The position numbers and the translations under genes are program-made. A stretch of DNA of 60,248 nucleotides from a virus. The stretch is from positions 1 through 60,248 of IMG/VR virus record IMGVR_UViG_3300045988_045310. The stretch is one strand, 5' to 3'. A model generated the notes under the pieces. That model saw only the letters and a list, made by a program, of their open reading frames with translations. It was not told where the DNA came from and did not search any database. Shown here one piece after another: positions 32,596-60,248 of this stretch; positions within the stretch are counted from its first letter, which is position 1; each line of letters starts with the position of its first letter.

Positions 32596-34335
32596 CTATA
32601 TAGGGCTTGGCAAAATTACTGTTGGCTTTATGTATCCGCTACGCATCTCATTTTCAAACAATGCAATGCTATCTGGTGCATCATCGTGTTTTACTTTTCC
32701 GCTACGTGTCATAGTGGTTAATTCCTTCATGAATTTGTAGTACTGGCTCTGCCTGTCCATTTTCTTGAAATCACGAAAATAATAATCACGAATTACATTA
32801 TCCCTTGCATTTTCCATTCTCGTAATTTTGTTGGAACAGTTAAACTTAAACCTTGCGCTACATCTTCCTCCCTGCGACTTTACAATGTCCATAACATCAC
32901 GACCAAAATATTCCCCGGCACTGTTGCTCTCAAAAGTGACTGTTTTAACATTGTGCTTAATAAGCATATTTGCGCATTCAGGCTTTGTGAACTGTGTTCC
33001 TGCATTATCAAATACTACATCAACGATATATACCTCGTTACCGTACACATATCCGACTGGCATAGCGCAGCTATCTTCTCCTTTATCTGCACTATCACAA
33101 GCCGCCATGATTGCGTCTGGTTCTCTGTCAATCGGAAGTTCTTCAAAGTAGTGCAATTCCTTTTCAGCAAACATACGTCCCTTTGCTTCAAACGGTGATT
33201 GTTGAAACTCAGATTCCCATGTTTCCTCTGAAACAAGTTTTCTCTCTTTCCGGTAATAGTCAGTAGTGAATATTTTTCTAAGGCCTCGCTTGTCCTTTCG
33301 GTATATTTCCCAGTTACTTTCGTCCGTTACAGGGTCAAGTGCCGGAATTGCAACCTCTTTCCATCTCCACCCTAGTTCATCAGCCTTGGTCTGTAACGCT
33401 GTAATAGGGTCATACAGGCTGTATTTTGTTCCCTGGATAATAATTGGTGTACCCTCTAATCTACGTCCTAAAACGTCATCTGTGACCTTTTCACACAGGA
33501 ACTCTAGCCTGTCTCTGTTTCTTGCTTCCTCATGGTTCTTTACGCAGTCATCAATATAAACAAGCACATTTGCTTCCGTACAGCCTACGATTGCACCGTC
33601 AATGGGTCTACAAGTAAATGTTGGAAAAATATTTTTGCTTTTAAGGTCTATGGAAAGGTTTTCTGCGCTCTTGTATCCATCTTTGCTTATTTTTGTAGCT
33701 TCCGGAAAAACACTTAAAAACCGCTGATAGGTACTTTCAGTCTCAAATCCTTGTAAAAGACCACCGTAGAACCTCTTTACCAGTCCTTCACCTTTTCCTA
33801 CACCGAAAATGCTTCCGTCCGGGTCTCTGCCGCCCATCATCTGTGCCAGTTTTAGTCCTCCGGTGGTTTTCCCAGTACGTTTCGGTTGTGAAACTGATAA
33901 GAAATCCAGTTTTCCATCGTAAATCTCTTGATATGCTCCGACTACCGGCTTTAGAACCTGTCTTCTCGGAAAATAGAACCTCTTCCACGGATCTTTTTCA
34001 TCAATTTCAATGTAATAGAAAAAGCTATCCACAAGATAAGCTGCTTCGTACATTAAAACATTGTAGAATTGCTCCAAAACCTTGTATGAAGTATTGTTAT
34101 CCCCTGCGTAAACTTCCAGGTCTGCAACCCTGCCGCCGGTCTTATCCTTGACATATTGTGCAATGTATGTTTTTGCTTTTGCTGATTGCTGTAATCCGTA
34201 TTCAATGTCATGTTCTGACCGAAAAGCAACTGCCAAAGCATCTATGTACGCATCAATGACCTGTTCATCAATCTCCTTTCGCTGTATGTAATTGTCATAG
34301 CTGTTTACTGCCGATATAAGGCTCTGACTTGCCAA
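32596..34335 (-). CDS. terL: terminase large subunit
   Basis: Walker A-like QPKRTGKTTGG; C-terminal nuclease-like region; start placed at TTG 34335 (GGAAGGAGG RBS 10 nt upstream), whereas the ORF track extends to 34473. Confidence 0.8.
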   Translation of the reverse strand: MASQSLISAVNSYDNYIQRKEIDEQVIDAYIDALAVAFRSEHDIEYGLQQSAKAKTYIAQYVKDKTGGRVADLEVYAGDNNTSYKVLEQFYNVLMYEAAYLVDSFFYYIEIDEKDPWKRFYFPRRQVLKPVVGAYQEIYDGKLDFLSVSQPKRTGKTTGGLKLAQMMGGRDPDGSIFGVGKGEGLVKRFYGGLLQGFETESTYQRFLSVFPEATKISKDGYKSAENLSIDLKSKNIFPTFTCRPIDGAIVGCTEANVLVYIDDCVKNHEEARNRDRLEFLCEKVTDDVLGRRLEGTPIIIQGTKYSLYDPITALQTKADELGWRWKEVAIPALDPVTDESNWEIYRKDKRGLRKIFTTDYYRKERKLVSEETWESEFQQSPFEAKGRMFAEKELHYFEELPIDREPDAIMAACDSADKGEDSCAMPVGYVYGNEVYIVDVVFDNAGTQFTKPECANMLIKHNVKTVTFESNSAGEYFGRDVMDIVKSQGGRCSARFKFNCSNKITRMENARDNVIRDYYFRDFKKMDRQSQYYKFMKELTTMTRSGKVKHDDAPDSIALFENEMRSGYIKPTVILPSPI

Positions 34336-34429
34336 TATAAAAGAGCCTCCTTCCCTAAAATTTTGGAAATTTGGCTCTCTGCGTAGGCACTCTACGACTG
34401 GTGCTCTAGAAAATATTCTATTTGCTATG

Positions 34430-34600
34430 CTAAGCAGTCCAAAACACAACATAACACATATGGTTTGTGTCAAATGTTATACTAATAATTTGTTCTGCAC
34501 TCTTTAATTCTTCCCAATCCTGGTCATTTTGCAGAATGGCTTGATTTATATCATTAAGGTTTTTGCAATATTGCCATTTCACCAACTTTGCTTGATTCAT
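34430..34600 (-). CDS. small hypothetical protein, below the ORF-track length cutoff
   Basis: 56-aa ORF MNQAKLVKWQYCKNLNDINQ... filling the gap upstream of terL. Confidence 0.35.
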   Translation of the reverse strand: MNQAKLVKWQYCKNLNDINQAILQNDQDWEELKSAEQIISITFDTNHMCYVVFWTA

Positions 34601-36346: not shown

Positions 36347-36363
36347 CCTCATATCCTCCGTAA

Positions 36364-36436
36364 CCCATGCAGACGGAATCGAACCGCCGACACACATCCT
36401 ATGCGGTTGCTGCTCTACCACTGAAGCTATACATGG
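36364..36436 (-). tRNA. tRNA with CAT anticodon (Met/Ile2-like) and an atypical anticodon loop
   Basis: 7-bp acceptor CCATGTA/TGCATGG, D-arm TAGCTTCAGTGGTAGAGC, T-arm GGCGGTTCGATTCCGTC; loop CGCATAG has G where U33 is expected, and the stem has one mismatch. Confidence 0.6.
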
Positions 36437-36595
36437 GAATCGCACCGTAAAACCTTTTATGGCTTGCGCTTGCCATAACCAAATGTGCACCGCCTACTTG
36501 TCACTGACTATCCACAATCTCACAGTCTTGTCTGTTCTCTACTTCATAGGCTTGGTTTTCGCTAAACATATGTGGCTTACGTTTTAGCTAGGGAA

Positions 36596-36703
36596 TAGTT
36601 GCCGTGGGAGTTGAACCCACCCGACCCAAACAATGTACGACTACTTTTGAATCTGCAAATTCTACTCGCAGAAGTGTTTTTCGTTGACCGATAATGAGCA
36701 ACT
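36596..36703 (-). tRNA. atypical 108-nt tRNA-like gene (isotype undetermined)
   Basis: 7-bp acceptor AGTTGCT/GGCAACT and perfect T-arm GTGGG-TTCAACT-CCCAC, but 76 nt between acceptor and T-arm instead of about 41-55. Confidence 0.4.
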
Positions 36704-36772
36704 ACTATCCATACATCTCCCATCGACCTGAACTATTGCAGTAGTGCCAGACTAAGTGGAGATAAGGATAAA

Positions 36773-36840
36773 CACGCCCGGAAAGCATCGAACTTTCGTT
36801 AGAGGTTTTGGAGACCTCTTTCTGACCAACAGACAGACGT
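36773..36840 (-). tRNA. tRNA-Trp (CCA) with a reduced D-arm
   Basis: acceptor ACGTCTG/CGGGCGT (2 G-U pairs), anticodon arm GAGGT-CTCCAAA-ACCTC, T-arm GAAAG-TTCGATG-CTTTC. Confidence 0.65.
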
Positions 36841-36992
36841 ATATAAAGTTTTCACGATTTTTTGAAACTTGAAACGGTCAAACTTTTTCATTGCTTTCCA
36901 AAACAAGAGGAATTGCCACTATTTCAACAAAGTTACTTTCTAGAATTTTCGCTTCTCAATAGCAACCACAGGTCGCATCCTTCAGCAACGCA

Positions 36993-37076
36993 CGCCATGT
37001 TAGGGATTTGAACCCCAGAGACTTTTACATCCAGACTGTTTTCAAGACAGCACCCTCGACCAACCGGACACATGGC
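36993..37076 (-). tRNA. tRNA-Ser (TGA), class II with long variable arm
   Basis: acceptor GCCATGT/ACATGGC, anticodon arm GCTGT-CTTGAAA-ACAGT, T-arm TGGGG-TTCAAAT-CCCTA. Confidence 0.7.
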
Positions 37077-37170
37077 AAATATAGCATGGTTAATTGCTAA
37101 AACAGGTATCTCAACTCACAATTATGCATATCCCCCTGCGAACAATGATATGCGTTCCCACTCGTATAAA

Positions 37171-37253
37171 CGCAGATACAAGGATTTGAACCTTGACAGC
37201 ATTTCTGCTGGATAGCTTAGCAAGCTACTGTGATACCATTACACCATATCTGC
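37171..37253 (-). tRNA. tRNA-Ser (GCT), class II
   Basis: acceptor GCAGATA/TATCTGC, anticodon arm GTAGC-TTGCTAA-GCTAT, variable arm CAGCA-GAAA-TGCTG, T-arm CAAGG-TTCAAAT-CCTTG. Confidence 0.75.
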
Positions 37254-37411
37254 AGTCGGGAGGTTTTTTACTTGGTTATCTCCCACCCAAGGATTTTTTA
37301 GTCAGCCGCAAGCGGCTCCATCAAGTTCCCATGAGATAAACATTAACCGGTGTATTTATCCCCTATGCTTCTGTAATAAGCATACTCGGAGTGTACTTGC
37401 AACAACACCCA

Positions 37412-37485
37412 TTGTGACGAAGGGACTCGAACCCATACCCCACAGCTTAGAAGACTGTTGCTCTCTCCATTTGCGCTACGTCACA
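37412..37485 (-). tRNA. tRNA-Arg (TCT)
   Basis: acceptor TGTGACG/CGTCACA, anticodon arm ACAGT-CTTCTAA-GCTGT, T-loop TTCGAGT. Confidence 0.75.
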
Positions 37486-37608
37486 ATGTGCGTTTCCATA
37501 AGCTGTATGCCTACATTTAAGGCACTGACACAGCGCAACACTTATGGATATTTTTATTTTCGCAGGGCATCCGCCAGTTACCTGCTAGTCGGTTGCGATC
37601 CGACATCG

Positions 37609-37692
37609 TGGGGAAAGAAGGAGTCGAACCTTCGGTGTTTCTAATGTCACGGTTTTACAGACCGCTGCAATCGCCACTATGCATATTTCCCC
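37609..37692 (-). tRNA. tRNA-Tyr (GTA), class II
   Basis: acceptor GGGGAAA/TTTCCCC, anticodon arm GCGGT-CTGTAAA-ACCGT, long variable arm, T-arm GAAGG-TTCGACT-CCTTC. Confidence 0.8.
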
Positions 37693-37964
37693 AAAACCTG
37701 TGCCGTATAACCACAGCTAAACTTCTGGCACACCTATCTGCTACCTACCGATTATTGCAATCACGGTATCGTCTTATAGACGCAGATAAAGTTTTCACCG
37801 CTATATGGTTGCAAAGCTTCAAGCGGTTACGTGGAAAACCCTCACGAGCCTTGCGACGGCTCTTAACAGCATTCCGCTATGAGGTGAAAGGAGTGTCTCC
37901 AATGGAAAAGTATGGAAGACAATTCGCAGATGGCAAAGACAGAAAGAAGAAAACATCTGCGAAA

Positions 37965-38035
37965 CAGGACTACCAGGATTCGGACCTGGGATGCAGCAGT
38001 CAAAGTGCTGTGCCTTACCGCTTGGCGATAGCCCT
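37965..38035 (-). tRNA. tRNA-Gln (TTG)
   Basis: acceptor AGGGCTA/TAGTCCT, D-arm TCGCCAAGCGGTAAGGCA, anticodon arm CAGCA-CTTTGAC-TGCTG, T-arm CCAGG-TCCGAAT-CCTGG. Confidence 0.8.
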
Positions 38036-38328
38036 AAACTCCGGGAGAGAGACCATCTGCTCCCGGATTATTTTCGTGAAACACCCTATATTGCTTAATT
38101 GTCACGCCTGCGCACGGTACTCTGTAAAACTTTGTGTTGTCGAACGCATTATTTCATTTTTCATTTCCCACACACAGGCTACATACACTCTTGATGCCTT
38201 GATTTCTCGGACACATATCCAATGCCAACACAACACCGGATATTCGGCAATAAAAATGGCTTTATGAATTTAACCCATTCAACGATGTGATATGGGATAA
38301 TTCGCATAATCTCCGGTAACCACATAGG

Positions 38329-39992: not shown

Positions 39993-40655
39993 CTACTCAT
40001 TCGCATCTGCTGTATCATCTCCATACGCTCCGGAATCGGTCAACATTGATGTATTTTGTCCAAAATTTGTGTCTAATCGCGGAAGTTGGTCGGCTGTCCT
40101 GGTTATCTTGTGTACAATCTCTTGCTGTGTGGTCTGTTTCCGCCCGTGGTCGTTGTTTAATCGTTCCGTTGCTCCCAGCGCATTCCGCAGATTAAAAGCA
40201 ACAAGCTGATCACAATCTGCATCATCTAACCAATTTACAAAAGCTTTTCTGACCTCGTCCATGCTCGATGTACTTGATTTAGTCCTCCAGGCACTTAAAG
40301 CCTGTTTAGATATCCCTGTTAATATCTTAAATGTATCAGCTGTGGCAGTCATATCATAAGCATTAGCTAACTCCCTAAGATATAAATAAACCTCATACAA
40401 CAGATCTATGTTGTACGCATTGTAGTTAGTTAGCATTTGGTTGATACTATTATCCACTACGTTTTGGGGTATATCTTTTAATACATTACTAGGTCTTATA
40501 TAATTATTATATATATATTGCATGGCACCATTAAAAACCGGTTGCCGTTGTGATCTCATGTCATCGATGCCATAAGCTGCACAATAATCGTCAAAGTATT
40601 TACGGATATTTTTTTTAATCTCGTCAATGTTTGGAATCTCTCTGACGTCCTGCAC
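39993..40655 (-). CDS. putative terminase small subunit
   Basis: first gene after the repeat-rich non-coding region; C-terminal LRNALGATERLNNDHG resembles the TerS tail motif; GTG start with an AGGAGG RBS. Confidence 0.4.
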   Translation of the reverse strand: MQDVREIPNIDEIKKNIRKYFDDYCAAYGIDDMRSQRQPVFNGAMQYIYNNYIRPSNVLKDIPQNVVDNSINQMLTNYNAYNIDLLYEVYLYLRELANAYDMTATADTFKILTGISKQALSAWRTKSSTSSMDEVRKAFVNWLDDADCDQLVAFNLRNALGATERLNNDHGRKQTTQQEIVHKITRTADQLPRLDTNFGQNTSMLTDSGAYGDDTADANE

Positions 40656-40699
40656 CGCTCTGCACCTCCTAAAAATCTGCAATAAAAAAATCACTAAGC

Positions 40700-41290
40700 A
40701 TCACTTAATAAACCCATGTTTTTTTAATCTCCTCCACAGATCAGGCAAAACATAAATTTACAAAAGTGATCAGCTAGTGACTTCTGATCGGTTCCGGTCT
40801 GTCGGCTCCGGTGGTCTTGGTTACAATCTGGGCGGATGCATATCCAGAGGGGGTTGGATTTGCACCGCTGTCACTCGCACCGTGTTAACGTCGGCTCCCT
40901 AACTGCTTTTATCATAACACAAGACCTATTTATAAATCCACAACAACCTTTTACGTATTTGATGATTTGTTGTTGTGGTATGTCTGCCGGTGATCCTGAT
41001 CAAATAAAAATCATGCGATTAAAAAATATCATCCGTGTAAATTTGACAAATGGGATTTTTTGACAGACAGACAGGTAATTTTTGCAGATGGGTACATGGT
41101 GGCAGCTGGTCGGCTCTAGTATTTATATATACTTGGTTATACAATGTCTTTCTGCACTTATTTACTTTTATTTTATCTAACCTTTATTTTATCTAATCTC
41201 CTTTTATTTAATCTGCGTCTACAAAATGTCTACAATTTGTCTACAAAATTTAGCACGTTAAAATGTCACAGTGAAAATAGATCAAGAAAA
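40700..41290. other. about 590-bp non-coding, repeat-rich region; candidate packaging (cos/pac) site and late promoter region
   Basis: no credible ORF; GC-rich core with GTCGGCTC x3; 10-bp inverted repeat CCACAACAAC/GTTGTTGTGG; three 11-bp tandem GTCTACAA(A/T)(A/T)T; three TTATTT(T)A(T/A)CT units. Confidence 0.35.
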
Positions 41291-41310
41291 GCAGGCTGTT
41301 ACACCTGCTT
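41283..41310 (-). terminator. possible terminator overlapping the stop of the AP2-domain gene
   Basis: minus strand AAGCAGG-tgtaacag-CCTGCTT followed by TTCTTGAT (weak T-run). Confidence 0.4.
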
Positions 41311-41881
41311 ATAGATTACGATATTTTGATTTTAATATGTTTATAAAATCATCTGTTAATAATCCGGATTCTTTTGCTTTTTGTGCCTCCTCTCTTGCCG
41401 ATTTTGCTACATTTATGTTTGATGTGGTCACAATCTTGATTTGCCTGTGATTAACAGATACGCAAGCAATCCATTTATTTTTTACAGTGTCCCAATTAAC
41501 ACCAGGGATGCCGCTATTTTTATGTATTCCGGTTGATTGCTTTTTATCGATATATATTTTTTTCGATTTCTTGACTTTTTCTTTGTTCTTTTTATTCCAA
41601 TCCTCAGATTGTTTATTATCAATTATTTTTAAATGTTTTTTAGCGCATTGAGGGCAAAATCTTTGTAAGCCGCTGCGCTTAATTATATCGCATCCGCAAG
41701 ACTCGCACTGTATAATAGACCCAAGCGGAGTTGTAGATCCGTGCTTGTTGCGCTCTTTATATCTTTTGCTTTGCTCTTTTTTTCGTTCCTGTCTGCATTC
41801 AGGACAGTAAAACGCCCTCGGCCCACCTAAAAAGCTGGTTCCGCACGTTCTGCAGATTCTTGGTAGTATATTATCTTTCAT
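41309..41881 (-). CDS. zinc-ribbon plus AP2-like DNA-binding domain protein
   Basis: two CxxC...CxxC ribbons (CRTCG..CPEC; CESCG..CPQC); C-terminal GIPGVNWDTVKNKWIACVSVNHRQIKI is AP2-like. Confidence 0.6.
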   Translation of the reverse strand: MKDNILPRICRTCGTSFLGGPRAFYCPECRQERKKEQSKRYKERNKHGSTTPLGSIIQCESCGCDIIKRSGLQRFCPQCAKKHLKIIDNKQSEDWNKKNKEKVKKSKKIYIDKKQSTGIHKNSGIPGVNWDTVKNKWIACVSVNHRQIKIVTTSNINVAKSAREEAQKAKESGLLTDDFINILKSKYRNL

Positions 41882-41929
41882 CTTTTTACTCCAATGCAAA
41901 AAGCGGAGCTTTTCGGCTCCGCTGAATAT

Positions 41930-42142
41930 TTAATAGCACGGGTTTTCTTTTGCCAGCTCCCAAACCTCGTTGAATTTTTGCTCGTGTCGTTTTACATACT
42001 CATTAAAAAATTCTTGGTCTGTACAAGGTGCTAATGTTCCATGTATTTGCTCTCTTAAATCGTCATCCATAAAGGATACCGCCAAATCATAATCAATGTT
42101 TACTCCATATTCATTTACAACTGTTTTTCTCATGTTATCCAC
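41930..42142 (-). CDS. hypothetical protein
   Basis: 70-aa ORF. Confidence 0.5.
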   Translation of the reverse strand: MDNMRKTVVNEYGVNIDYDLAVSFMDDDLREQIHGTLAPCTDQEFFNEYVKRHEQKFNEVWELAKENPCY

Positions 42143-42160
42143 CTTTTAACCTTTCTTTTT

Positions 42161-42520
42161 TTAATTTGCATATGCCTTTTTGGGCTGCCAGTTATAATTA
42201 TATGCTTTTTTTCGGTAGTCCTCAAAATCTCTTGATGTCTTGCGGATCATTTCCGCTTTTACTGTGATCCGGTCAATTAGTGCCCTGTCACCGTATGCGG
42301 TCTTGCTGGCCAATAACTCCGAATCTGTCATGCTCTCCAGTGCTTGGAGCGTTTCCGCTTGCACCGTCTCCAGTGCTTGGAGTTCTGCCCGGTTAAATTC
42401 TTTCAGCCGTTCTGATTCCACATTTTCCAGTTGCTCCCGGTAGTACCGGAAGAACTGCCGGACGTTTGAGCGGATCCGGGCGGCTTTCTTTGCTGTGATC
42501 TGCTCCGGTGTTCCTGTCAT
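42161..42520 (-). CDS. hypothetical coiled-coil protein
   Basis: ORF track 42161..42604; start moved to MTGTPEQ (AAGGAG RBS 8 nt upstream, just after the upstream stop). Confidence 0.5.
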   Translation of the reverse strand: MTGTPEQITAKKAARIRSNVRQFFRYYREQLENVESERLKEFNRAELQALETVQAETLQALESMTDSELLASKTAYGDRALIDRITVKAEMIRKTSRDFEDYRKKAYNYNWQPKKAYAN

Positions 42521-42525
42521 GTCGT

Positions 42526-42969
42526 TCACTCCTTTTCTCTCTGTATTCGCTCCATGCCTTGATTGTAAATTTCTTCCGCTTCTTTCCGCTTGCGTTTTAC
42601 CCATTCAACATTGCTTTCGTCTGACCGCTGTCCAGGTAAGCCCGCCCATTTCGGAGGATGTTTAACGACTAGTGCAACTTCTCCGTGCTCTCTAGCGGCT
42701 CTTTCTGCCGCTGTTTTGGCTTGTAAAGCGTGTAGCCGTTCATTTGCCTGCATGAGTGCGATTTTTTCGTCTATGAGGCTTCTAGAGCCTGTCACGGGTG
42801 TTTCTTTCGGTTGCTCTGTCACCGTTTGCGGCTGTACTGGTTGCAATGCTGCGATCACGGCACCTATAACAAACTGGTTTACGCTTATACCGTTCTTTTC
42901 TGCTTGCGCTTTGATCTGCGGTTCTAGGTCTTTCGGGAATCTAATCATTTGGTTAAATGTTTCCGCCAT
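42526..42969 (-). CDS. ribbon-helix-helix (Arc/CopG/omega-like) DNA-binding protein
   Basis: N-terminal MIRFPKDLEPQIKAQAEKNGISVNQFVIGAVIAAL is an RHH fold signature; lies directly downstream of the TGATATCA array. Confidence 0.6.
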   Translation of the reverse strand: MAETFNQMIRFPKDLEPQIKAQAEKNGISVNQFVIGAVIAALQPVQPQTVTEQPKETPVTGSRSLIDEKIALMQANERLHALQAKTAAERAAREHGEVALVVKHPPKWAGLPGQRSDESNVEWVKRKRKEAEEIYNQGMERIQREKE

Positions 42970-42989
42970 TTTAGCACCTCCTTTTCTTG

Positions 42990-43102
42990 TGATATCATCT
43001 ATGTGATATCATTAGTTTTTTATGATATCATTAGTGTGATATCATGGCTATGATATCATGACATCATTAGTGTGATATCACTTGTTTGATATCGTGATAT
43101 CA
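42990..43102. repeat. array of 8 palindromic TGATATCA sites (7 perfect, 1 with one mismatch)
   Basis: perfect copies start at 42990, 43004, 43023, 43037, 43051, 43073 and 43095; TGATATCG at 43087; longer unit TGATATCATTAG seen twice. Confidence 0.9.
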
Positions 43103-43111
43103 CTATAGCAT

Positions 43112-43150
43112 TTTGTGCCTTATATGTCAATATGTTTTTGTGCCTTATTT
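43112..43150 (+). repeat. iterons 1-2 of TTTGTGCCTTAT(A/T)T
   Basis: copies at 43112-43125 and 43137-43150, the latter overlapping the stop of the RHH gene. Confidence 0.85.
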
Positions 43151-43336
43151 TAATATTTTTTCGTCGTGCTCCAGTTTTTCCGCAACAGCTAATTTTATAA
43201 AATCGTTCACACTCTTATAACCTAATTTATTGATACGGTCTTTTGTGCCAGTTGCAAAACGGCAATTCACCCGTTCAAATTTGTTGTCGTATTTGTAAAT
43301 TGCTTTCCTTGTTGCGTCCGTTGTTTTTCGCTCCAT
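43145..43336 (-). CDS. small RHH/Arc-like DNA-binding protein
   Basis: start MERKTT (AGGAGG RBS 7 nt upstream); ...RVNCRFATGTKDRINKLGYKSVNDFIKLAVAEKL resembles an RHH fold; flanked by iterons. Confidence 0.5.
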   Translation of the reverse strand: MERKTTDATRKAIYKYDNKFERVNCRFATGTKDRINKLGYKSVNDFIKLAVAEKLEHDEKILK

Positions 43337-43377
43337 TGTTTGCACCTCCTTATATAAATGTATCTTTATTATATTTG

Positions 43378-43522
43378 TTTGTGCCTTATATGTCAATATT
43401 ATTTTTTATCTACTATAATATAATCATGTTTCTTTTTGTGCCTTATACATTATGCACAACAAAATCGCTTATTTTGTGCCTTATATTTGTATATTATTGC
43501 GTCTTGTTTTTGTGCCTTATAT
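43378..43522 (+). repeat. iterons 3-6 of TTTGTGCCTTATA(T/C)
   Basis: copies at 43378, 43435, 43473 and 43509, all in the same orientation; the 21-mer TTGTGCCTTATATGTCAATAT is identical in copies 1 and 3. Confidence 0.85.
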
Positions 43523-43633
43523 CTGTTATAGTTATCTCAACAAATAAAAAAGCCGGTGACACCTACCAAGCGAACACCGGCACCCAAAAAGAAAGGCACC
43601 GCAATTATAACACGGTGAAAAGGTAAAAGCAAT

Positions 43634-44035
43634 ATGTTGAAAACAAATTGTAAAAAGGCAATGGAGAACATAAAAAAGGAAATTATTGACGCTTACGAAT
43701 CAGCGGAAGAATATTATACCTTTAACGGCAGGGAAGCGAAGAAAGAATACAACGATATTTGTAAAGATATCATGAACGCATTTTACATTGAAAAAGTAAA
43801 ATATGATTGCAGGAGAATGAGCCGTCAAGAATTATTTATTGACTGGATGTCAGGACTTCCAACCGCTTTCCCTGTATCTGATGAAATTTATTTGCGTTCT
43901 GCATCCGACTGGGTGGGAAAAATCTTGGAGCAGGCAGAAGAAGAAAAGGAAAAATTCACCGAGGAAGAATCCGAAAAATTAGCTTGCTGTTTGCTTTTCA
44001 GGGAACTTGAAAAACACGCAAGCAAGGCAAAATAA
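43634..44035 (+). CDS. hypothetical protein
   Basis: 133-aa ORF on the plus-strand island. Confidence 0.5.
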   Translation: MLKTNCKKAMENIKKEIIDAYESAEEYYTFNGREAKKEYNDICKDIMNAFYIEKVKYDCRRMSRQELFIDWMSGLPTAFPVSDEIYLRSASDWVGKILEQAEEEKEKFTEEESEKLACCLLFRELEKHASKAK

Positions 44036-44207
44036 TAGGTTGACAGTATGGAAATTATAACCGCTTTATTTTCCGACATTGCTGCCGGGTACATCATCAG
44101 ATATTACAGAGAGTTAAGCAAGTAAGATAGGCTTACAACCGGGATCGAGTCCCGGTCTTGCTTTTACCCGGAAACGGGAAAAATTGAAAATGCGGAGGAG
44201 CGAGAAA

Positions 44208-44546
44208 ATGAAAATTATAGAAAAATCGAAAATGCCTGACGGCACAGAAATACAACTAGAGGATTGGCACGACAAAAACACAAAAGATTATAATGATTTA
44301 TACGGTTATGTAATAGGTGTATATCCAGTTGCTAAAAATTCCGGTCGTTTTGGTTGGGTAAAATCCGGAGAAAAATTTAGAATATCAATTAATTATAATA
44401 AATATGCAAATTATACTGATGAAATGGTGTTGAATGATTTTGAAGCGTTAAAAAATGGAGAAAAAACATTATCAGATTTAAAAGATCATTTTTTTAATAA
44501 CTTTAAAGATCAATTTTATTTAGGAATCATAGATTTTGAACCTTGA
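44208..44546 (+). CDS. hypothetical protein
   Basis: ORF track 44184..44546; start moved to MKIIEKS (GGAGGAG RBS). Confidence 0.5.
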   Translation: MKIIEKSKMPDGTEIQLEDWHDKNTKDYNDLYGYVIGVYPVAKNSGRFGWVKSGEKFRISINYNKYANYTDEMVLNDFEALKNGEKTLSDLKDHFFNNFKDQFYLGIIDFEP

Positions 44547-44565
44547 CAGCCGCCGCAGAGGATGC

Positions 44566-44594
44566 CCGCCGGATCACTACCGGCGGCGGTTTTA
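44566..44594 (+). terminator. intrinsic terminator
   Basis: CCGCCGG-atcacta-CCGGCGG followed by CGGTTTT. Confidence 0.6.
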
Positions 44595-44637
44595 TGGGTG
44601 AAATTTACCCAAAAATTAAAAATAGGAGGTTGCCAAG

Positions 44638-44754
44638 ATGAAAGAAAAGAACCTTGAAAGACTTTACAAGCTGTTAGAGCGTGCGGAGCGAGAGAAAGAC
44701 ACGGAGACAGCCGCCGCCATTCGGTGGGCAATTTTTGAACTTGAAAACAGATAA
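44638..44754 (+). CDS. 38-aa hypothetical protein, below the ORF-track length cutoff
   Basis: AGGAGG RBS 8 nt upstream of the ATG; MKEKNLERLYKLLERAEREKDTETAAAIRWAIFELENR; followed by a terminator. Confidence 0.4.
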   Translation: MKEKNLERLYKLLERAEREKDTETAAAIRWAIFELENR

Positions 44755-44779
44755 AAGACGGCTTGCAACCGTCTTTTTG
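44755..44779 (+). terminator. intrinsic terminator
   Basis: AAGACGG-cttgcaa-CCGTCTT followed by TTT. Confidence 0.65.
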
Positions 44780-44853
44780 ACGTGTCCTTCCGTTTGGCGG
44801 TCTGTTTTCGTTGCTCTTCTGCCGGATCCGGTCGGATTATGTGCACAGGTATA

Positions 44854-44883
44854 TTGACGGCTTGCGATGGCTTGGTGTACAAT
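44854..44883 (+). promoter_or_regulatory. promoter (TTGACG-18-TACAAT with upstream TG)
   Basis: TTGACGgcttgcgatggcttggtgTACAAT, upstream of the 44912 gene. Confidence 0.5.
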
Positions 44884-44911
44884 CAAATATTACAAGGGGG
44901 ATTTTGCCAAA

Positions 44912-45106
44912 ATGCGAAAATTGGGAATAGGTCATGTATATGACATCATGGATAGTGTTTTAGATGCTGGAAAACGGTTGGAAGTCGTTTTAAATGTGGA
45001 ATCTACCAGGGGTGGTCTGTCTCCGGAATCTGCGGAGCTGCTACGGTCTGCGCACGATGCTATTCTTTCGGCTGTCGGAGACCTTGCGAAAGCTGTGACA
45101 CGGTGA
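44912..45106 (+). CDS. hypothetical protein
   Basis: ORF track 44867..45106; start moved to MRKLGIG (AAGGGGGA RBS). Confidence 0.5.
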   Translation: MRKLGIGHVYDIMDSVLDAGKRLEVVLNVESTRGGLSPESAELLRSAHDAILSAVGDLAKAVTR

Positions 45107-45167
45107 CCGGATGCACCACAGGAGCTTACAAGCGTTTCATGCCTTGAATCGGCATAAAAAAATTAGT

Positions 45168-45345
45168 GAAAAATCTCTGAAAACGGATTTTTCAGCTTGA
45201 AAAGTGCTACCCCGGGGGGTATTTTGAAAAAGGCATTATATTTTGACGAAAAAATTTTCTTTTAAAAACCTCTGAAAACGAGATTTTCTGTTGAAAATGC
45301 AGGCCTACGGGGGTATCGAAAAATTTGACCCGAAAATTTTCTTCA
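45168..45345 (+). repeat. two tandem imperfect direct repeats of about 85-95 bp in an intergenic region
   Basis: both units contain CTCTGAAAACG.GATTTT...TTGAAAA.TGC...GGGGGTAT..GAAAAA..TTTGAC..GAAAA.TTTTCTT. Confidence 0.7.
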
Positions 45346-45350
45346 CATTC

Positions 45351-45379
45351 GTGACATATTTCCTATCATGTGCTACAAT
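45351..45379 (+). promoter_or_regulatory. promoter (GTGACA-17-TACAAT with upstream TG)
   Basis: GTGACAtatttcctatcatgtgcTACAAT, 29 nt upstream of ATG 45408. Confidence 0.5.
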
Positions 45380-45407
45380 TTTATAAAAAACGAAAGGGGA
45401 TTTTTAT

Positions 45408-46376
45408 ATGAAATGCTACAAATGTGGTTCAGAAATGAGAGTTGTTCCGGAACAGGTGGCTACTGATGAGAAAGGTCTTCCTGTGTATCACAGAATAGGT
45501 TATTGTGATTCTTGCATGGCTAAATTTGACATTGATATTGTGGAACAACAAAATAAGAAAAAGAAAAAGCAAAGCATATTAAGTATACTATCTGTTGTGT
45601 TCACTCTTCTTGGTCTTACAATTCCAGTAGCAATTATTTTAGCCATTATTGATATTGTTAAAGGCGATAAAAATAACAAAAATCACAGCGGTTCATGGTT
45701 TTCAATTATTTTTTCTGTAATTGTAATTCTTGTTTATTTTTTAGGTGGTCAAAATGTGGAAAACCAAAATGTTTCAAATAATGTAAGTATAGAGTCTTTG
45801 ACAGAAGCAGAAAGTAAAACTATGGAAGTACCAAATGAATCAGTCGAAAACTATCTTGATTATCAAGGAGAAAATACAAATCAAGAAACAGATTCTAAAA
45901 TAGAGTCTACGGCTACTCAATCAGAAAGTAATGTAATGGAAAATGAAAATTATGTAGAATATGAGCAGGAAGATGATTTATCAGAAGAGGAATATAAAAA
46001 ATCATGTGTTGAATTATTCTATGATGATATATTTTTCTCCCAAGATGATTTAGAGGGAAAAGATGTAAAACTAAATCTTTTTGTGTCAGAACTTTATGAA
46101 TTAAGAGCAAAAGATATGTATTATGATTATATTCAAGAAATGTTTGGAGAATATAATTTACAGCGGAATTTTTTAAAATGCTGTGTTTTGAGGGAAGGTA
46201 CTGAAAGCTATATGGGGGAACAAATCAATGTACTGTTTTCTAATGATTATGGATTAAACGCAACCGATTATTCCGGTGGTGAAAAAATAACTGTATATGG
46301 AAAAATAATAGGATACAGTACGAATTCATGGAGAGGTTACAACAAATGTGAATTTATGCCATTATATATAGAGTAA
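45408..46376 (+). CDS. membrane protein with an N-terminal zinc ribbon, 2 TM helices, an acidic linker and a C-terminal globular domain
   Basis: CYKCGS...CDSC ribbon; hydrophobic ILSILSVVFTLLGLTIPVAIILAIIDIV and WFSIIFSVIVILVYFLGG; Glu/Asn/Ser-rich linker. Confidence 0.6.
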   Translation: MKCYKCGSEMRVVPEQVATDEKGLPVYHRIGYCDSCMAKFDIDIVEQQNKKKKKQSILSILSVVFTLLGLTIPVAIILAIIDIVKGDKNNKNHSGSWFSIIFSVIVILVYFLGGQNVENQNVSNNVSIESLTEAESKTMEVPNESVENYLDYQGENTNQETDSKIESTATQSESNVMENENYVEYEQEDDLSEEEYKKSCVELFYDDIFFSQDDLEGKDVKLNLFVSELYELRAKDMYYDYIQEMFGEYNLQRNFLKCCVLREGTESYMGEQINVLFSNDYGLNATDYSGGEKITVYGKIIGYSTNSWRGYNKCEFMPLYIE

Positions 46377-49896: not shown

Positions 49897-50021
49897 AAGG
49901 TCATTCCTCCTTATGCTTAAATTTTGGCATAAAAAAAGACGGTCTACCCGTCATGTATCCGTCACATTTCATTCACTATAAAATTATTGGAATCTTTGCA
50001 AAAAACTCCTTTCGTTTTAGG

Positions 50022-50208
50022 CTTGACTACTATTTTGACTACTATTCGACTACCCGTTGCCCGGGAATGCCCATTTTATCAGCTTTTTCGAGTGGAAGCA
50101 AGGGGGCTCGAACCCCACTCTATTCCTCTTACTTTCCGCATATTTACTGGCTTTCTAGGTGTTTTTTGTTGATTACTTTTGACTACTTTCGCAAAAATAG
50201 TAGTCAAA
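50022..50208. other. attP region: tRNA 3'-end-like core flanked by TTGACTACT arm-type repeats
   Basis: 50093-50117 (minus) reads TGGGG-TTCGAGC-CCCCT + TGCTTCC + A, i.e. T-arm plus acceptor 3' strand with no 5' half; TTGACTACTATT x2 plus CGACTAC at 50023-50053; TTGATTACT, TTGACTACT and inverted AGTAGTCAA at 50169-50207. Confidence 0.55.
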
Positions 50209-51429
50209 TCACCTTGCCTGTAAATCTGGTATACTACTCAAAATAGACGATTTCTTTTCAATGGTTTTCCTGTTCCTATGATAGTGTATTTCTGATGTCA
50301 TAATATCTGTATGCCCCATCTGATCCATAACAAGTCTCTTATCCACATTGTTATCCATAAGAATAGTTCCATATGTCTTTCTTACTTTGTGCGGTGGCTT
50401 TGGATAAATTTTCAATTTCCTGCAAAGCCTTTTCTGCCTTTGTCTAACCGCCTGTGCGGTGATCCTAATATCATTTTTTGTAAAAATGTAATCTCCAAAC
50501 GGATTCATGTGTTTTATTTTATCGCAAATCCATACATAATCACTTGGTATAATTGCTGTTCTGATTCCTGCCTTGGTTTTAGGATACTCTTTTACTTCAA
50601 CAACATTGTTTCCGTTTTCATCTTTATACTTCGTCTCCGTTCTGCGAACGTTAAAAGTATTATCAGAAAAATCGGAATGCCTTAATGTTACAACTTCTCC
50701 GATACGTACGCCAGTTAAAAACATAAGCAATATCGCAACATTAGAAGTATCAAGGTGGCTGACAAGATACTTAATCATTACATCAGTTTCATATTCGTCG
50801 AATACTTCTTCATAGTCTTCTTTTATTACTTTTTTAAAATCACTATCAGATACGTCAAGATTCTCAAAAAGTTCTACAATATTAAAATCAATAAGTTTAC
50901 GTTTTTTCGCCCGTTTAAGGAAAGTTCTTGTAATTCCTTTTAGACCGGAAAAAGATTTAGGTGTCAACTCTTTATCGGCAATTTCTTCCTCTAAAAAATC
51001 CCCCCATTCATCTTCTGATATTGATTTTATTCTTCGCTTACCCAACTCTCCATAGTGTCTGAGAAAATATCTCTCGTCTCTGTCGTATGTTGCTTTACAT
51101 ATCTTTTTAAGAGACAATCTCCGGTCTTCACATTCGTAAAACACTTCTGTAACTGTTGGATTTTGCTCTTTTTGGTAGTAAAACTCAATAACTTCTTCTT
51201 TGAGATCTTCCTCGCTTTTCTTTTTTACAAGTCTCCTTCCTTTTTCTTCATCTGGCAAATAAGTTCTCCAGTATCCGTCTTTGCCTTTGTTGATTGCGTA
51301 TTGGTGTTTCTTCAGATACTCCTCTTTCTTTTTCATTTCAATGCTTTTTTGCAAAGATTCCGTGTCAATCATACCATTGCTAACGGCATATTGCAATATT
51401 TCCATATCAGAAAGTTCCAAATCTATCAC
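50209..51429 (-). CDS. int: tyrosine-type site-specific integrase
   Basis: RIGEVVTLR (catalytic Arg), HKVRKTYGT (HxxR) and HTDIMTSEIHYHR (terminal Tyr region). Confidence 0.85.
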   Translation of the reverse strand: MIDLELSDMEILQYAVSNGMIDTESLQKSIEMKKKEEYLKKHQYAINKGKDGYWRTYLPDEEKGRRLVKKKSEEDLKEEVIEFYYQKEQNPTVTEVFYECEDRRLSLKKICKATYDRDERYFLRHYGELGKRRIKSISEDEWGDFLEEEIADKELTPKSFSGLKGITRTFLKRAKKRKLIDFNIVELFENLDVSDSDFKKVIKEDYEEVFDEYETDVMIKYLVSHLDTSNVAILLMFLTGVRIGEVVTLRHSDFSDNTFNVRRTETKYKDENGNNVVEVKEYPKTKAGIRTAIIPSDYVWICDKIKHMNPFGDYIFTKNDIRITAQAVRQRQKRLCRKLKIYPKPPHKVRKTYGTILMDNNVDKRLVMDQMGHTDIMTSEIHYHRNRKTIEKKSSILSSIPDLQAR

Positions 51430-59543: not shown

Positions 59544-59855
59544 TCACGATTTTGCACTCCTTTTCCCGTATGTACTTGCGATTCTGTATACATTGCAAAG
59601 TTCTCTATAATATATTTCCTGGGCATGGATATAAGCATCCACACGGTCAAGTTCCGTTTCACACCACTTGGCAAATTCTTCTGTGGATAACGGTGTCTCT
59701 GAAGTATCAAATTTCTCACTGTTATCAATCACAAAACTCACCATATCAACCGGAATGTGGTTCAAATCCGCAAGAATCTGAATCTGTTTGTCCTTGTCCT
59801 CTGCTTTTTTATAATTCGCCAACAATTCATAGCCTGTCATTTGCATTTGCATCAC
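59544..59855 (-). CDS. hypothetical protein
   Basis: 103-aa ORF with 4-nt overlap with the upstream gene. Confidence 0.5.
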   Translation of the reverse strand: MMQMQMTGYELLANYKKAEDKDKQIQILADLNHIPVDMVSFVIDNSEKFDTSETPLSTEEFAKWCETELDRVDAYIHAQEIYYRELCNVYRIASTYGKRSAKS

Positions 59856-60248
59856 CTCTTATCAAGTTTGATTTCATTGTCGTAACAACGCTTCTTTGGA
59901 TTTCCCTCTACGGGAGAAATCATCTTTTTAGGGTCTGTGGTGTATGCTCCGTTTAGCTTTACACCTATTTTGCTTTTTTCATCCACGTAGCAAGATGGCT
60001 TGTAACGATCCGGTGGAATGTAGTTGTGAATGCGCCAATGCTTTACAAGCATAACACCACTATCGAAAGATAAAAGGAATCTATTGTCTATCAATGCTTT
60101 CAAATCATCATCAGAAGCACCGCACATCCTTATGATTTTCCGTGGGTTATTTACAAATCCGTCATCATCAGCGTTCATACAGATATGGAAATAAAGCATT
60201 TGAGCCGTAGCAGGAATATCCAAAAAAGCATCACTCTCAATTATTTTT
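59852..60248 (-). CDS. phage replisome organizer (N-terminal-domain family); the 5' end continues across the window junction to ATG at window position 103
   Basis: SAKIIESDAFLDIPATAQMLYFHICMNADDDGFVNNP is the replisome-organizer N-terminal signature. Confidence 0.7.
   Translation of the reverse strand, partial: KIIESDAFLDIPATAQMLYFHICMNADDDGFVNNPRKIIRMCGASDDDLKALIDNRFLLSFDSGVMLVKHWRIHNYIPPDRYKPSCYVDEKSKIGVKLNGAYTTDPKKMISPVEGNPKKRCYDNEIKLDKR
60172..60248. repeat. 77-bp exact duplicate of positions 1-77 (circular-closure overlap)
   Basis: base-by-base identity of both window ends; a gene reads through the junction in frame. Confidence 0.9.

Follow-up and report, generated by a model that had tools for sequence, protein, structure and literature searches.

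What do two dense arrays of short repeats do when they lie beside two small genes for presumed ribbon-helix-helix (RHH) proteins in a virus genome? We addressed this question in a stretch of 60,248 nucleotides of viral DNA, which is called the window here. A sequence-only reading had proposed that the arrays could form a dual operator switch between leftward and rightward genes, an iteron origin, or a partition site of a plasmid-like phage. Our analysis favors, with a probability of about 0.72, the view that the arrays are the predicted sites of two small repressors governing three promoters around a variable slot of a human-gut phage that holds an AcrIC5 homologue, the whole being an autorepressed pulse controller similar to Aca and Reg576.

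The coordinates of the two RHH genes given by the sequence-only reading were checked and are correct. The genes are as follows.

42526 to 42969, minus strand: RHH1, 147 amino acids, with an Arc-like N-terminal RHH domain (Pfam, fold and alignment)
43145 to 43336, minus strand: RHH2, a putative RHH repressor of 63 amino acids, allele A (strand ERVNCRF; homologue alignment and weak profile matches)

RHH1 comprises an RHH domain at about residues 4-42, a disordered linker, and two long C-terminal helices. The protein scored 29.2 bits against the Pfam family HicB (cut-off 21) and 17.9 bits against Arc, just under the cut-off of 20.4, and its PHROG matches were to Arc-like families. In the structural model, an extended segment at residues 4-12 is followed by helices at residues 16-25 and 30-42 in a strand-helix-helix order. 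Nearly all Foldseek matches of RHH1 were RHH proteins, and Arc was superposed over 39 residues with an rmsd of 2.1 (probability 0.97, TM 0.72), although the small size of the domain keeps the Foldseek E-values from reaching significance. The domain is closest to Arc and Mnt, the similarity to Arc being weak (E = 0.33). The profile match and the modeled fold superposition support the RHH fold that had been read in this gene. A scan of GTDB genomes with RHH1 returned no relative.

For RHH2, the strand from F20 to R26 was invariant in 25 homologues save V23, which is V or I. Allele A of RHH2 had no Pfam match and no family match above threshold, while allele C had sub-threshold Pfam matches to TacA1, ParD, and NikA, and phrog_13890 matched RHH1 and RHH2 alike. 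A plain sequence search of RHH2 against the PDB found no match, and the RHH2 profile gave weak matches to the RHH domain of PutA and to MazE4 (E = 0.6-1.5). The monomer model of RHH2 shows an extended segment and then helices at residues 31-38 and 43-62, and the sole fold match of this low-confidence model was HicB (E = 8.6). With its matches below threshold and a model pLDDT of 64, the 63-aa product, which had also been called an RHH protein, is only suggested to have that fold.

We then located promoter-like elements around the two genes.

43102 to 43130, minus strand: P1, TTGACA-17-(TG)TATAGT, an 11/12 consensus match with a predicted start near 43095
43368 to 43396, minus strand: P2, TTGACA-17-TATAAT, a 12/12 match and the predicted promoter of RHH2, with an expected start near 43361
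43524 to 43532, plus strand: P3, a predicted extended -10 element, TGTTATAGT, with a predicted start near 43539, which would drive 43634-44035
43634 to 44035, plus strand: the first rightward gene, 133 amino acids, presumably driven by P3

P1 and P2 were the two best promoter matches of the region in a consensus scan. P3 was missed by the scan because its -35 element is weak, and was identified by eye. Its pattern, TGnTAT(A/T)(G/A)T, stands at a constant distance from the conserved leader CAACAAATAAAAAAGCC in each of the four cassette types, and the motif adjoining it varies by allele.

The first array lies in the leader of RHH1.

42990 to 43102, no strand assigned: array 1, nine 8-bp palindromes of the TGATATCA type (copy search, TRF and covariation)

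Seven boxes are exact copies of TGATATCA (at 42990, 43004, 43023, 43037, 43051, 43073, and 43095) and two have one mismatch (TGACATCA at 43059 and TGATATCG at 43087), so that eight palindromes in the sequence-only reading become nine, while its seven perfect boxes and its span of 113 bp stand. Just five exact copies of TGATATCA occur in the remaining 60 kb. From the background rate of TGATATCA matches with at most one mismatch, 0.09 boxes would be expected per 113 bp, against the nine present (P for at least nine, about 1e-15); array 1 is real and non-random. The start-to-start steps are 14, 19, 14, 14, 8, 14, 14, and 8 bp, and TRF reported periods of 14, 33, and 36 bp. The array extends from the -10/+1 region of P1, where it covers the last -10 bases, to 5 nt short of the ribosome-binding site of RHH1.

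The second array consists of six copies of another motif.

43112 to 43125, plus strand: array 2 copy 1, inside the P1 spacer
43137 to 43150, plus strand: array 2 copy 2 (O2), overlapping the stop codon of RHH2, immediately upstream of the P1 -35 element
43378 to 43391, plus strand: array 2 copy 3, inside the P2 spacer
43435 to 43448, plus strand: array 2 copy 4 (O4), auxiliary, in the P2-P3 interval
43473 to 43486, plus strand: array 2 copy 5 (O5), auxiliary, in the P2-P3 interval, its position kept in relatives
43509 to 43522, plus strand: array 2 copy 6 (O6), 1 bp upstream of the TG in the extended -10 of P3

A search for TTTGTGCCTTATAT with up to two mismatches found these copies at 43112, 43137, 43378, 43435, 43473, and 43509, all on the plus strand, and no further copy in the window. 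Shuffled sequences contained 0.94 +/- 0.92 copies, and none of 100 shuffles had six, which confirmed the six same-orientation copies described earlier; array 2 is also real and non-random. An 11-nt core, TAAGGCACAAA, is exact in 6/6 copies. Copies 1 and 3, which fill the 17-bp spacers of P1 and P2, respectively, share an exact repeat, TTTGTGCCTTATATGTCAATAT, of 22 nt rather than the 21 nt first counted. These repeats, the hexamers, and their relative positions are visible in the DNA itself, and the start sites are predicted.

The genes and hairpins behind P1 indicate what such promoters would control.

42161 to 42520, minus strand: orf119, a helical, coiled-coil-like protein, always with RHH1
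41930 to 42142, minus strand: an AcrIC5-family (anti-CRISPR) homologue, 70 amino acids (Pfam PF22147)
41902 to 41923, minus strand: a terminator-like hairpin of 8 bp (6 G-C) followed by TTTT, 3' of the AcrIC5-like gene
41309 to 41899, minus strand: a Zn-ribbon protein of 196 amino acids whose C-terminal domain is weakly AP2-like (Pfam and PHROG)
41289 to 41310, minus strand: a second terminator-like hairpin, closing the accessory unit

The P1 unit thus runs in the order RHH1, orf119, AcrIC5-family gene, and Zn-ribbon/AP2-like gene; a terminator-like hairpin follows each of the last two genes, and such hairpins also bracket the accessory unit as a whole. The AcrIC5 homologue matched PF22147 with an E value of 1.4e-19 (70.4 bits; cut-off 27) and occurred in 13/79 of the RHH1 loci and in 3/44 of the loci with RHH2 only. 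The 196-aa protein matched Pfam AP2 under the cut-off (E = 0.018) and HNH/AP2-type families in PHROGs; a 196-aa AP2 protein adjoining an AcrIC5 homologue was reported earlier (10.1101/2023.05.22.541795). As in the Aca functional class, an AcrIC5-family gene is found in the unit, in third place, and the repeats overlap the predicted P1. In other phage lineages, the RHH2-P1 cassette precedes variable small, often acidic ORFs, and the slot again includes AcrIC5-like genes and Zn-ribbon or AP2-like proteins. Ten cargo proteins of those lineages had no credible family match and fell in no known anti-defence family.

The region had been placed at the head of the late arm. That placement is too simple, as the P1 unit has the terminator-like hairpins at 41923-41902 and 41310-41289 and carries the AcrIC5-family and Zn-ribbon/AP2-like genes. 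The slot behind P1 is read as accessory and probably anti-defence. Beyond the unit, family searches with a conserved 220-aa gene (39993-40655) gave no credible match, and the gene was therefore not called a small terminase.

To relate the arrays to the two proteins, we compared about 160 loci of related gut phages, in which alleles have been swapped naturally; a comparison with related phages had been recommended in the sequence-only reading. In this set, each array covaries with the alleles of the protein presumed to bind it. Three alleles of RHH2 occur; the motif differs from one to the next, whereas its five or six positions and the promoter hexamers are unchanged: strand ERVNCRF occurs with ATAAGGCACAAAA (5.8 copies per 700 bp), strand DRINIVF with ATAATGCACATA (5.9 copies), and strand DRITVMS with AGCATAGTTTAAT (4.9 copies), with essentially zero cross-occurrence between alleles. 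TTGACA and TATAAT/TATAGT are kept in alleles A, B, and C around an allele-specific spacer motif. Alleles B and C also have an allele-specific motif at the RHH2 stop codon, matching the place of O2, and in both of these alleles, as well as in the type-4 cassette, the place of O6 is taken by allele-specific motifs. The GGCACAAA core is retained down to 64% RHH2 protein identity.

RHH1 behaves in the same manner. Strand FNQMIRFP occurs with the box core TGATATCA in 36/36 distinct loci, and strand FDYKVRFP with TGACATCA in 11/11. The residues that change between these alleles align with Q9 and N11 of Arc, and the counterpart of Arc R13 is kept. The number of boxes in relatives ranges from 1 to 10; the single box left in locus L006 lies precisely on -10/+1, and in all variants of array 1 the promoter-proximal box overlaps the start site. 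Mosaics of RHH1 and RHH2 alleles (1A, 1B, 2B, 2C, and 3C) separate the two systems, in that the motif in the P1 spacer goes with the small gene upstream and the array in the leader goes with RHH1. In locus L025, alleles B and A are stacked with a hybrid promoter. Only a few independent events underlie the covariation (three alleles for RHH2, two or three for RHH1), and because of the physical linkage between motifs and genes, block inheritance adds to the pattern. Array 1 and array 2 are most likely binding sites for RHH1 and RHH2, respectively. A third RHH1 allele has a different strand (YSVPVRFP) and still the TGATATCA core; a simple residue-to-base code for RHH1 is therefore weakened and fails for this allele.

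We propose that the 660-bp intergenic region and the two small genes form a transcription-control cassette. RHH2, expressed from P2, would bind the 14-16-bp motif ATATAAGGCACAAAA at six sites: in the spacer of P2, its own promoter; in the spacer of P1; just upstream of the P1 -35 element; beside the extended -10 of the divergent P3; and, as auxiliary sites, at two places in the P2-P3 interval. With sites at P1, P2, and P3, one protein would shut three promoters. RHH1, the first product of P1, would bind the 8-bp palindromes over the P1 -10/+1 region and the leader as a second, cooperative layer of autorepression, with the number of boxes setting its strength. On entry into a cell containing neither RHH1 nor RHH2, P1, P2, and P3 would be active simultaneously, giving an early burst of RHH1, orf119, the AcrIC5 homologue, and the rightward gene, and of the AP2-like protein by read-through. 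Repressor build-up would then throttle expression, leaving a low level in lysogens. Of the earlier ideas, the dual operator switch between leftward and rightward genes is the one that the evidence favors, and it can be made more precise: motif copies lie in the P1 and P2 spacers and next to P3, array 1 lies on the P1 start and leader, and the arrays covary with the alleles. However, the leftward unit is accessory and not simply the head of the late genes.

The proposed cassette does not account for orf119 or the conserved C-terminal domain of RHH1. It could be that RHH1 and orf119 are the antitoxin and toxin of a type II toxin-antitoxin-like pair, in which array 1 serves as an operator for conditionally cooperative autoregulation and the anti-CRISPR neighbor is incidental. 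The pair has the expected layout: RHH1 carries its RHH domain at the N terminus and helices at the C terminus, with a disordered linker between them, and the next gene is small and tightly or translationally coupled (a gap of 5 nt here and a 4-nt overlap in locus L160). RHH1 and orf119 occur together in 79/79 loci, the C-terminal domain of RHH1 is conserved across relatives while its DNA-binding domain is swapped, and the top matches of RHH1 are the HicB antitoxin family in Pfam and VapB by fold. On the other hand, orf119 is in no toxin family and had no credible match in Pfam, PHROGs, NCBIfam, PADLOC, or PDB sequences, and it has a helical, coiled-coil look. Toxin-antitoxin operators normally have one or two palindromes, whereas array 1 has up to ten boxes, and RHH2 and its sites at three promoters would be left unaccounted for. 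We consider such a pair unlikely. Since it is compatible with array 1 as the operator of RHH1, it rivals the biological role and not the mechanism of the proposed repressor cassette.

Alternatively, array 1 may act as RNA, with leader hairpins that control translation or stability in the manner of the Aca2 5' untranslated region. The leader in the window folds at -33.1 kcal/mol (z = -5.3 against shuffled sequences), and structured leaders are bound by Aca1 and Aca2 (PMC13551039). However, the allele-2 lineage has only TGACATCA boxes, all oriented the same way, which breaks self-complementarity without compensation, and the leader folds no better than chance (z = -1.7; 15/200 shuffles were as good). 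The box type follows the DNA-binding strand of RHH1. Rfam gave only sub-threshold miRNA noise at the array region, and no match at the non-coding stretch 40600-41400. Because the TGACATCA lineage is no longer foldable, we rejected this explanation as very improbable.

Could the arrays instead serve replication or maintenance? Array 2, with or without array 1, has the one-orientation direct repeats, the 36-57-bp spacing, and the AT-rich intergenic setting of an iteron-type replication origin. However, no initiator gene lies nearby, the neighbors being RHH1, RHH2, orf119, the AcrIC5-like gene, and other cargo, and the replication genes (a DnaD-like loader, RecT, and an SbcC-like gene) are at 59852-60223 and 114-11612. 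Two of the copies sit exactly within promoter spacers, the motif covaries with a 63-aa RHH-like protein and not with a Rep, and the cassette precedes variable cargo in other lineages. There is scant likelihood that the arrays are such an origin.

A partition centromere for an RHH protein of the ParG or omega type is supported by the short-repeat arrays that such centromeres form and by a match of RHH1 to phrog_795, "partition protein ATPase" (E = 1.4e-4). However, the RHH domain of RHH1 is N-terminal, unlike that of ParG and omega. No Rep gene and no ParA or Walker ATPase was found among the window ORFs scanned with PHROGs and Pfam, which agrees with the sequence-only reading that neither a Rep nor a ParA gene is visible, and the window has an integrase and an attP-like site. 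A GTDB scan with an RHH2 alignment as query found seven loci (six in MAGs) in Lachnospiraceae, Clostridia, or Ruminococcus, which served for host assignment alone. Relatives of RHH2 sit on bacterial contigs of 100-530 kb; L006, moreover, is down to one box. We find plasmid-like maintenance as implausible as an iteron origin, and both suggestions, including that of a plasmid-like lifestyle for the phage, found no support. DNA similarity searches of 41000-46000 against cultured phages and plasmids gave no match.

It is equally improbable that array 1 is a packaging site (pac or cos) for an RHH-type small-terminase-like protein. Terminase small subunits recognize repeated boxes, and the packaging and structural genes follow downstream of the region on the same strand. 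However, a distance of 8 kb, with seven tRNA genes, an HNH gene, and several ORFs in it, separates array 1 from the large terminase gene (32596-34473); the units are set apart by two terminator-like hairpins; the box number ranges from 1 to 10; and a promoter-proximal box covers the start site in all variants.

The proposed repressor cassette can be compared with several known systems. Two RHH repressors in one small temperate-phage control region are also found in immI of the Salmonella phage P22 (Arc and Mnt). The -35/-10 spacer of Pant holds the Arc operator, a position like that of the array 2 copies in P1 and P2, and RHH1, like Mnt, has a C-terminal helical extension. Unlike in immI, no antirepressor gene lies downstream here (the sole Ant-like gene, 10845-11612, is in the early region), the two genes are tandem and not divergent, and there are far more sites. 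At several promoters, the omega protein of pSM19035 occupies 7-10 short repeats, and MetJ recognizes 8-bp palindromes in tandem (AGACGTCT), each box taking one dimer. Array 1 likewise consists of 8-bp palindromes, two pairs of which abut at 8-bp spacing. In contrast to the omega and MetJ sites, most boxes follow one another at 14 or 19 bp and are located downstream of the promoter; partition and copy-control genes are absent, as is any co-repressor context, and RHH1 has a long linker and an extra domain.

Aca14 of Pasteurella multocida (WP_005725436.1 / HDR1349883.1) is an RHH regulator that represses its own operon and a neighboring anti-defence operon (PMC13551039). As proposed here, a small RHH protein is encoded beside anti-CRISPR or anti-defence genes and the sites overlap promoter elements (PMC13551039). 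Aca14 has one inverted repeat over each -10 element, whereas the motifs here are 14-16 bp, in one orientation, partly in spacers, and at six positions of three promoters; a second RHH protein and a tandem array of 1-10 boxes add a further layer. The Aca14 gene ends an acr operon in a proteobacterium, while the regulator here lies upstream with its own promoter in a gut Clostridia/Lachnospiraceae lineage. Reg576 of the Bacillus pumilus plasmid p576 is an RHH protein for the transient expression of establishment genes (PMC6294495). It is a Firmicutes repressor of its own and several establishment or anti-restriction promoters with direct-repeat operators (PMC6294495). Its operator, a dual TTATCCC heptamer with a 2-bp gap bound by two dimers, differs from the array motifs (PMC6294495), and the system is plasmid-borne with a single regulator and no tandem palindrome array in a leader, as opposed to a phage with two RHH genes.

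Aca proteins are the main handle for anti-CRISPR discovery. To our knowledge, nearly all known Aca proteins are helix-turn-helix proteins of Proteobacteria, and the first of RHH type was reported in 2026. If our reading is correct, the cassette would be an RHH-based counterpart of Aca in abundant uncultured gut Clostridia/Lachnospiraceae phages. More speculatively, RHH2-P1 might be a portable regulator-promoter cassette with interchangeable specificities that marks a hypervariable anti-defence slot in very abundant human-gut Lachnospiraceae phages, on which RHH1/orf119 and the 1-10-box array are stacked as an evolvable rheostat of pulse size and length; we hold this extension to be possible but rather doubtful. 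RHH2-P1 would then be a guilt-by-association anchor for new anti-defence genes in the slot, and the small cargo genes a list for anti-defence screening. The allele-matched operator sets would provide ready specificity swaps, and the loci with 1-10 boxes a natural series for how site number tunes repression.

The rightward flank of the control region has hairpins of its own.

43543 to 43581, minus strand: a terminator-like hairpin with a T-run, just upstream (in the minus-strand sense) of the control region and within the rightward mRNA leader

The minus strand of 43533-43640 folds at -31.3 kcal/mol (z = -3.2). The rightward leader is conserved in relatives and the gene behind it varies; family searches with the rightward genes of the window gave no credible match. 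A further terminator-like hairpin is found at 44138-44156, beyond the first rightward gene, and another, at 43597-43617, could either act as a second terminator or carry an antisense promoter. In relatives, the hairpin at 43543-43581 is formed by one of two unrelated sequences, with a T-run behind both.

The control region carries two repeat arrays around two minus-strand genes, RHH1 (42526-42969), encoding a 147-aa Arc-like protein, and RHH2 (43145-43336), encoding a 63-aa putative ribbon-helix-helix (RHH) protein. In array 1 (42990-43102), seven boxes match TGATATCA exactly and two have one mismatch, a density with P ~1e-15 by a Poisson estimate from the background. The sequence-only reading had described this array as it is but for the count, which we find to be nine boxes and not eight. 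Its array 2, six same-strand copies of TTTGTGCCTTATAT, was borne out: 0.94 copies are expected from shuffles, an 11-nt core is exact in 6 of 6 copies, and no further copy occurs elsewhere in the window. Overall, the observation was confirmed with minor corrections.

A consensus promoter scan gave two outstanding minus-strand calls, P1 and P2, and a plus-strand promoter, P3, was also predicted:

43396-43368, minus strand: predicted promoter P2, TTGACA-17-TATAAT, preceding RHH2
43130-43102, minus strand: predicted promoter P1, TTGACA-17-TG-TATAGT, preceding RHH1
43524-43532, plus strand: predicted extended -10 of P3, TGTTATAGT, facing the first rightward gene

The 17-bp spacer of P2 is filled by array-2 copy 3 and that of P1 by copy 1, which explains why these copies have an exact 22-mer in common, made up of the motif and the -35 element. 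Copy 2 overlaps the stop codon of RHH2, a short way upstream of the P1 -35; the stretch from P2 to P3 holds copies 4 and 5, and copy 6 ends 1 bp ahead of the TG of the P3 extended -10. Array 1 starts on the final bases of the P1 -10 (TATAGTGATATCAC), spans the predicted leader and stops 5 nt short of the RHH1 ribosome-binding site. A strong hairpin with a T-run (43581-43543) lies upstream in the minus-strand sense and, with terminator-like hairpins downstream, marks the unit as an insulated cassette rather than just the first late operon that a place at the head of the late arm had implied.

The leader of the rightward gene (43533-43633) is conserved, and relatives have its terminator-like hairpin (43581-43552) in one of two versions that are unrelated in sequence. 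Another small hairpin, at 43617-43597, bears a conserved minus-strand TG(T/C)TATAAT; speculatively, this could be a face-to-face promoter for an antisense RNA of ~55 nt ending at the terminator.

We then compared about 160 related loci. RHH2 occurs as three alleles, defined by the strand (A, ERVNCRF; B, DRINIVF; C, DRITVMS), and each is surrounded by its own motif (A, ATAAGGCACAAAA; B, ATAATGCACATA; C, AGCATAGTTTAAT) at shared positions, namely the stop codon, the spacers of both P1 and P2, and two or three distal sites. The TTGACA and TATAGT/TATAAT/TACTAT hexamers stay in place across the alleles. The 700 bp upstream of RHH1 hold on average 5.8, 5.9 and 4.9 own motifs in A, B and C loci, respectively, with essentially no cross-occurrence. 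Between A and B, two motif positions differ, as does one strand residue predicted to face outward (R26 to V); hybrid motifs occur. At two loci (L025, about 2300-3000, and L096), alleles B and A stand in tandem, so that three RHH genes follow one another, and the promoter between them is itself a hybrid, its -35 preceded by a B motif and its spacer holding an A motif.

RHH1 likewise has at least four N-terminal alleles joined to a conserved C-terminal domain. FNQMIRFP accompanies TGATATCA arrays in 36 of 36 distinct loci, and FDYKVRFP accompanies TGACATCA arrays in 11 of 11. In a phmmer alignment to Arc, the two outward-facing positions that change align with Arc Q9 and N11, and the retained Arg with Arc R13; all three are DNA-contact residues of Arc. 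TGATATCA boxes are also present with a third allele, YSVPVRFP, so there is no simple residue-to-base code. The fourth has an RHH2-like N-domain, lacks a separate RHH2 gene and carries ATATGATA-type sites at both P1 and P3. Mosaics of the two genes (1A, 1B, 2B, 2C and 3C, named by RHH1 and RHH2 allele) show that the P1 spacer motif follows the upstream small gene and the leader array follows RHH1, though the two are only ~10 bp apart. The P3 extended -10 and following leader are conserved over cassette types, while the gene beyond varies. The number of array-1 boxes ranges from 1 to 10; the sole box of one locus (L006) is the -10/+1 box.

RHH1 scored above the Pfam cut-off for HicB and just under that for Arc, and its best PDB sequence matches were Arc and Mnt, both weak. 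In its model, an extended segment and two helices are followed by a disordered linker (~43-64) and then by a pair of long helices (65-95 and 120-146); fold matches were almost exclusively to RHH proteins. The evidence for an RHH fold in RHH2 is convergent but weak; its strand residues are invariant across homologues. The P1 unit continues as follows:

42520-42161, minus strand: orf119, downstream of RHH1
downstream of orf119: 70-aa protein of the AcrIC5 anti-CRISPR family (PF22147, E = 1.4e-19)
41923-41902: terminator-like hairpin after the AcrIC5-family gene
after this hairpin: 196-aa Zn-ribbon protein with a weak AP2-like domain
41310-41289: second terminator-like hairpin, after the Zn-ribbon/AP2-like gene

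Orf119 is present in 79 of 79 RHH1 loci, closely or translationally coupled to RHH1 (42161-42969 in the window). This linkage, the conserved C-terminal domain and the exchanged DNA-binding domain suggest a protein partner or effector role beyond autorepression. A toxin-antitoxin pair would fit the architecture and the strict linkage, but Pfam, PHROGs, NCBIfam, PADLOC and PDB sequences gave no toxin signature for orf119; were the pair real, the biological role would change and the operator mechanism would stay. An RNA-level role for array 1 is unlikely, since the TGACATCA leaders lack excess folding energy (z = -1.7 vs -5.3). The plasmid-like readings offered earlier, an iteron origin or partition site, are not supported: the required Rep or ParA partner was not found among the ORFs scanned, and the promoter-embedded positions conflict with both. 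A packaging site is hard to reconcile with a terminase gene 8 kb away, terminator-like hairpins in between and a box number that varies.

The operator-switch interpretation was supported and sharpened by the promoter-embedded motifs and by the co-variation of allele and motif. We infer binding, repression, start sites and anti-defence activity. RHH2 would occupy the promoter spacers and repress P2 and P1, and act on P3 via -10-proximal DNA; RHH1 would coat the P1 start site and leader, adding cooperative autorepression. With its flexible linker and helical domain, RHH1 could span boxes spaced 8, 14 and 19 bp, which would account for the tolerance of copy-number change. The consensus promoters would be active on entry and shut off afterwards. 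Such behavior has been described for Aca regulators, among them Aca14, an RHH protein acting as repressor of two operons (PMC13551039), and for another RHH protein, Reg576 (PMC6294495). The cassette as proposed resembles the Aca, Reg576 and Arc type in pairing an RHH autorepressor with operators; so read, it stands out by its two tiers, spacer-placed operators, interchangeable specificities and copy-number-variable box array.

Gene content in the RHH1 lineage varies between orf119 and a conserved 220-aa gene; an AcrIC5 homologue is found in 13 of 79 loci and an AP2-like gene in 16 of 79. In other phage lineages, the RHH2-A gene, stop-codon motif and P1 promoter directly precede differing small, often acidic ORFs, again including AcrIC5-like genes and Zn-ribbon or AP2-like proteins, before the same 220-aa gene. 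Ten of these other-lineage cargo proteins were searched and none matched a known family. An AcrIC5 homologue adjoining a 196-aa AP2-domain protein has been described, in work stating that acr loci frequently contain AP2 proteins (10.1101/2023.05.22.541795); Firmicutes and Actinobacteria have AcrIC5 orthologues (PMC7913775), and AcrIC5 is acidic and a proposed blocker of the Cas8c PAM site (10.1101/2025.06.06.658234). Between the second terminator-like hairpin and the 220-aa gene lies a 600-bp non-coding stretch (40695-41290), 89-96% conserved in the close family only, with TTTTGTAGAC three times at 41217-41249, TTAGATAAAATAAA-type repeats at 41170-41214 and no Rfam match.

The genome (~60 kb, 39% G+C) is that of a temperate siphovirus-like phage:

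about 40.7 kb down to 14.3 kb, minus strand: structural and packaging genes, including large terminase, portal, major head protein, tape measure and endolysin
32596-34473: large terminase
12432-13927, plus strand: cI-like regulators
12.3 kb to the left end, resuming at the right end: early and recombination genes
50209-51429: integrase gene

The window edge cuts through a DnaD-like loader, which makes circular permutation of the contig probable. Just past the integrase 3' end, an attP-like region (50020-50210) has a tRNA-3'-end-like core (50095-50125) flanked by TTGACTACT(A/T)TT repeats, three at 50023-50060 and two or three more at ~50169-50207, one inverted; the TTGACTACT repeats probably serve as arm-type sites for the integrase. 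Human-gut viromes very commonly contain close relatives, and relatives of the RHH2 gene were found on Lachnospiraceae/Clostridia assemblies; cultured phages and plasmids had no DNA-level similarity to 41000-46000, the part compared.

Seven tRNA genes (Met, Trp, Ser x2, Arg, Tyr, Gln; 36363-38036, minus strand) lie in the late arm between an HNH-containing block and the terminase. Two different plus-strand transposase ORFs, one in the early region (5490-6857) and one between tail genes (16280-17497), run opposite to their phage neighbors and match phrog_2199; they may be IS110-like. Within a 637-aa tail-region gene, a perfect 18-bp tandem repeat (18869-18912, 2.4 copies) encodes GLYPQK repeats.
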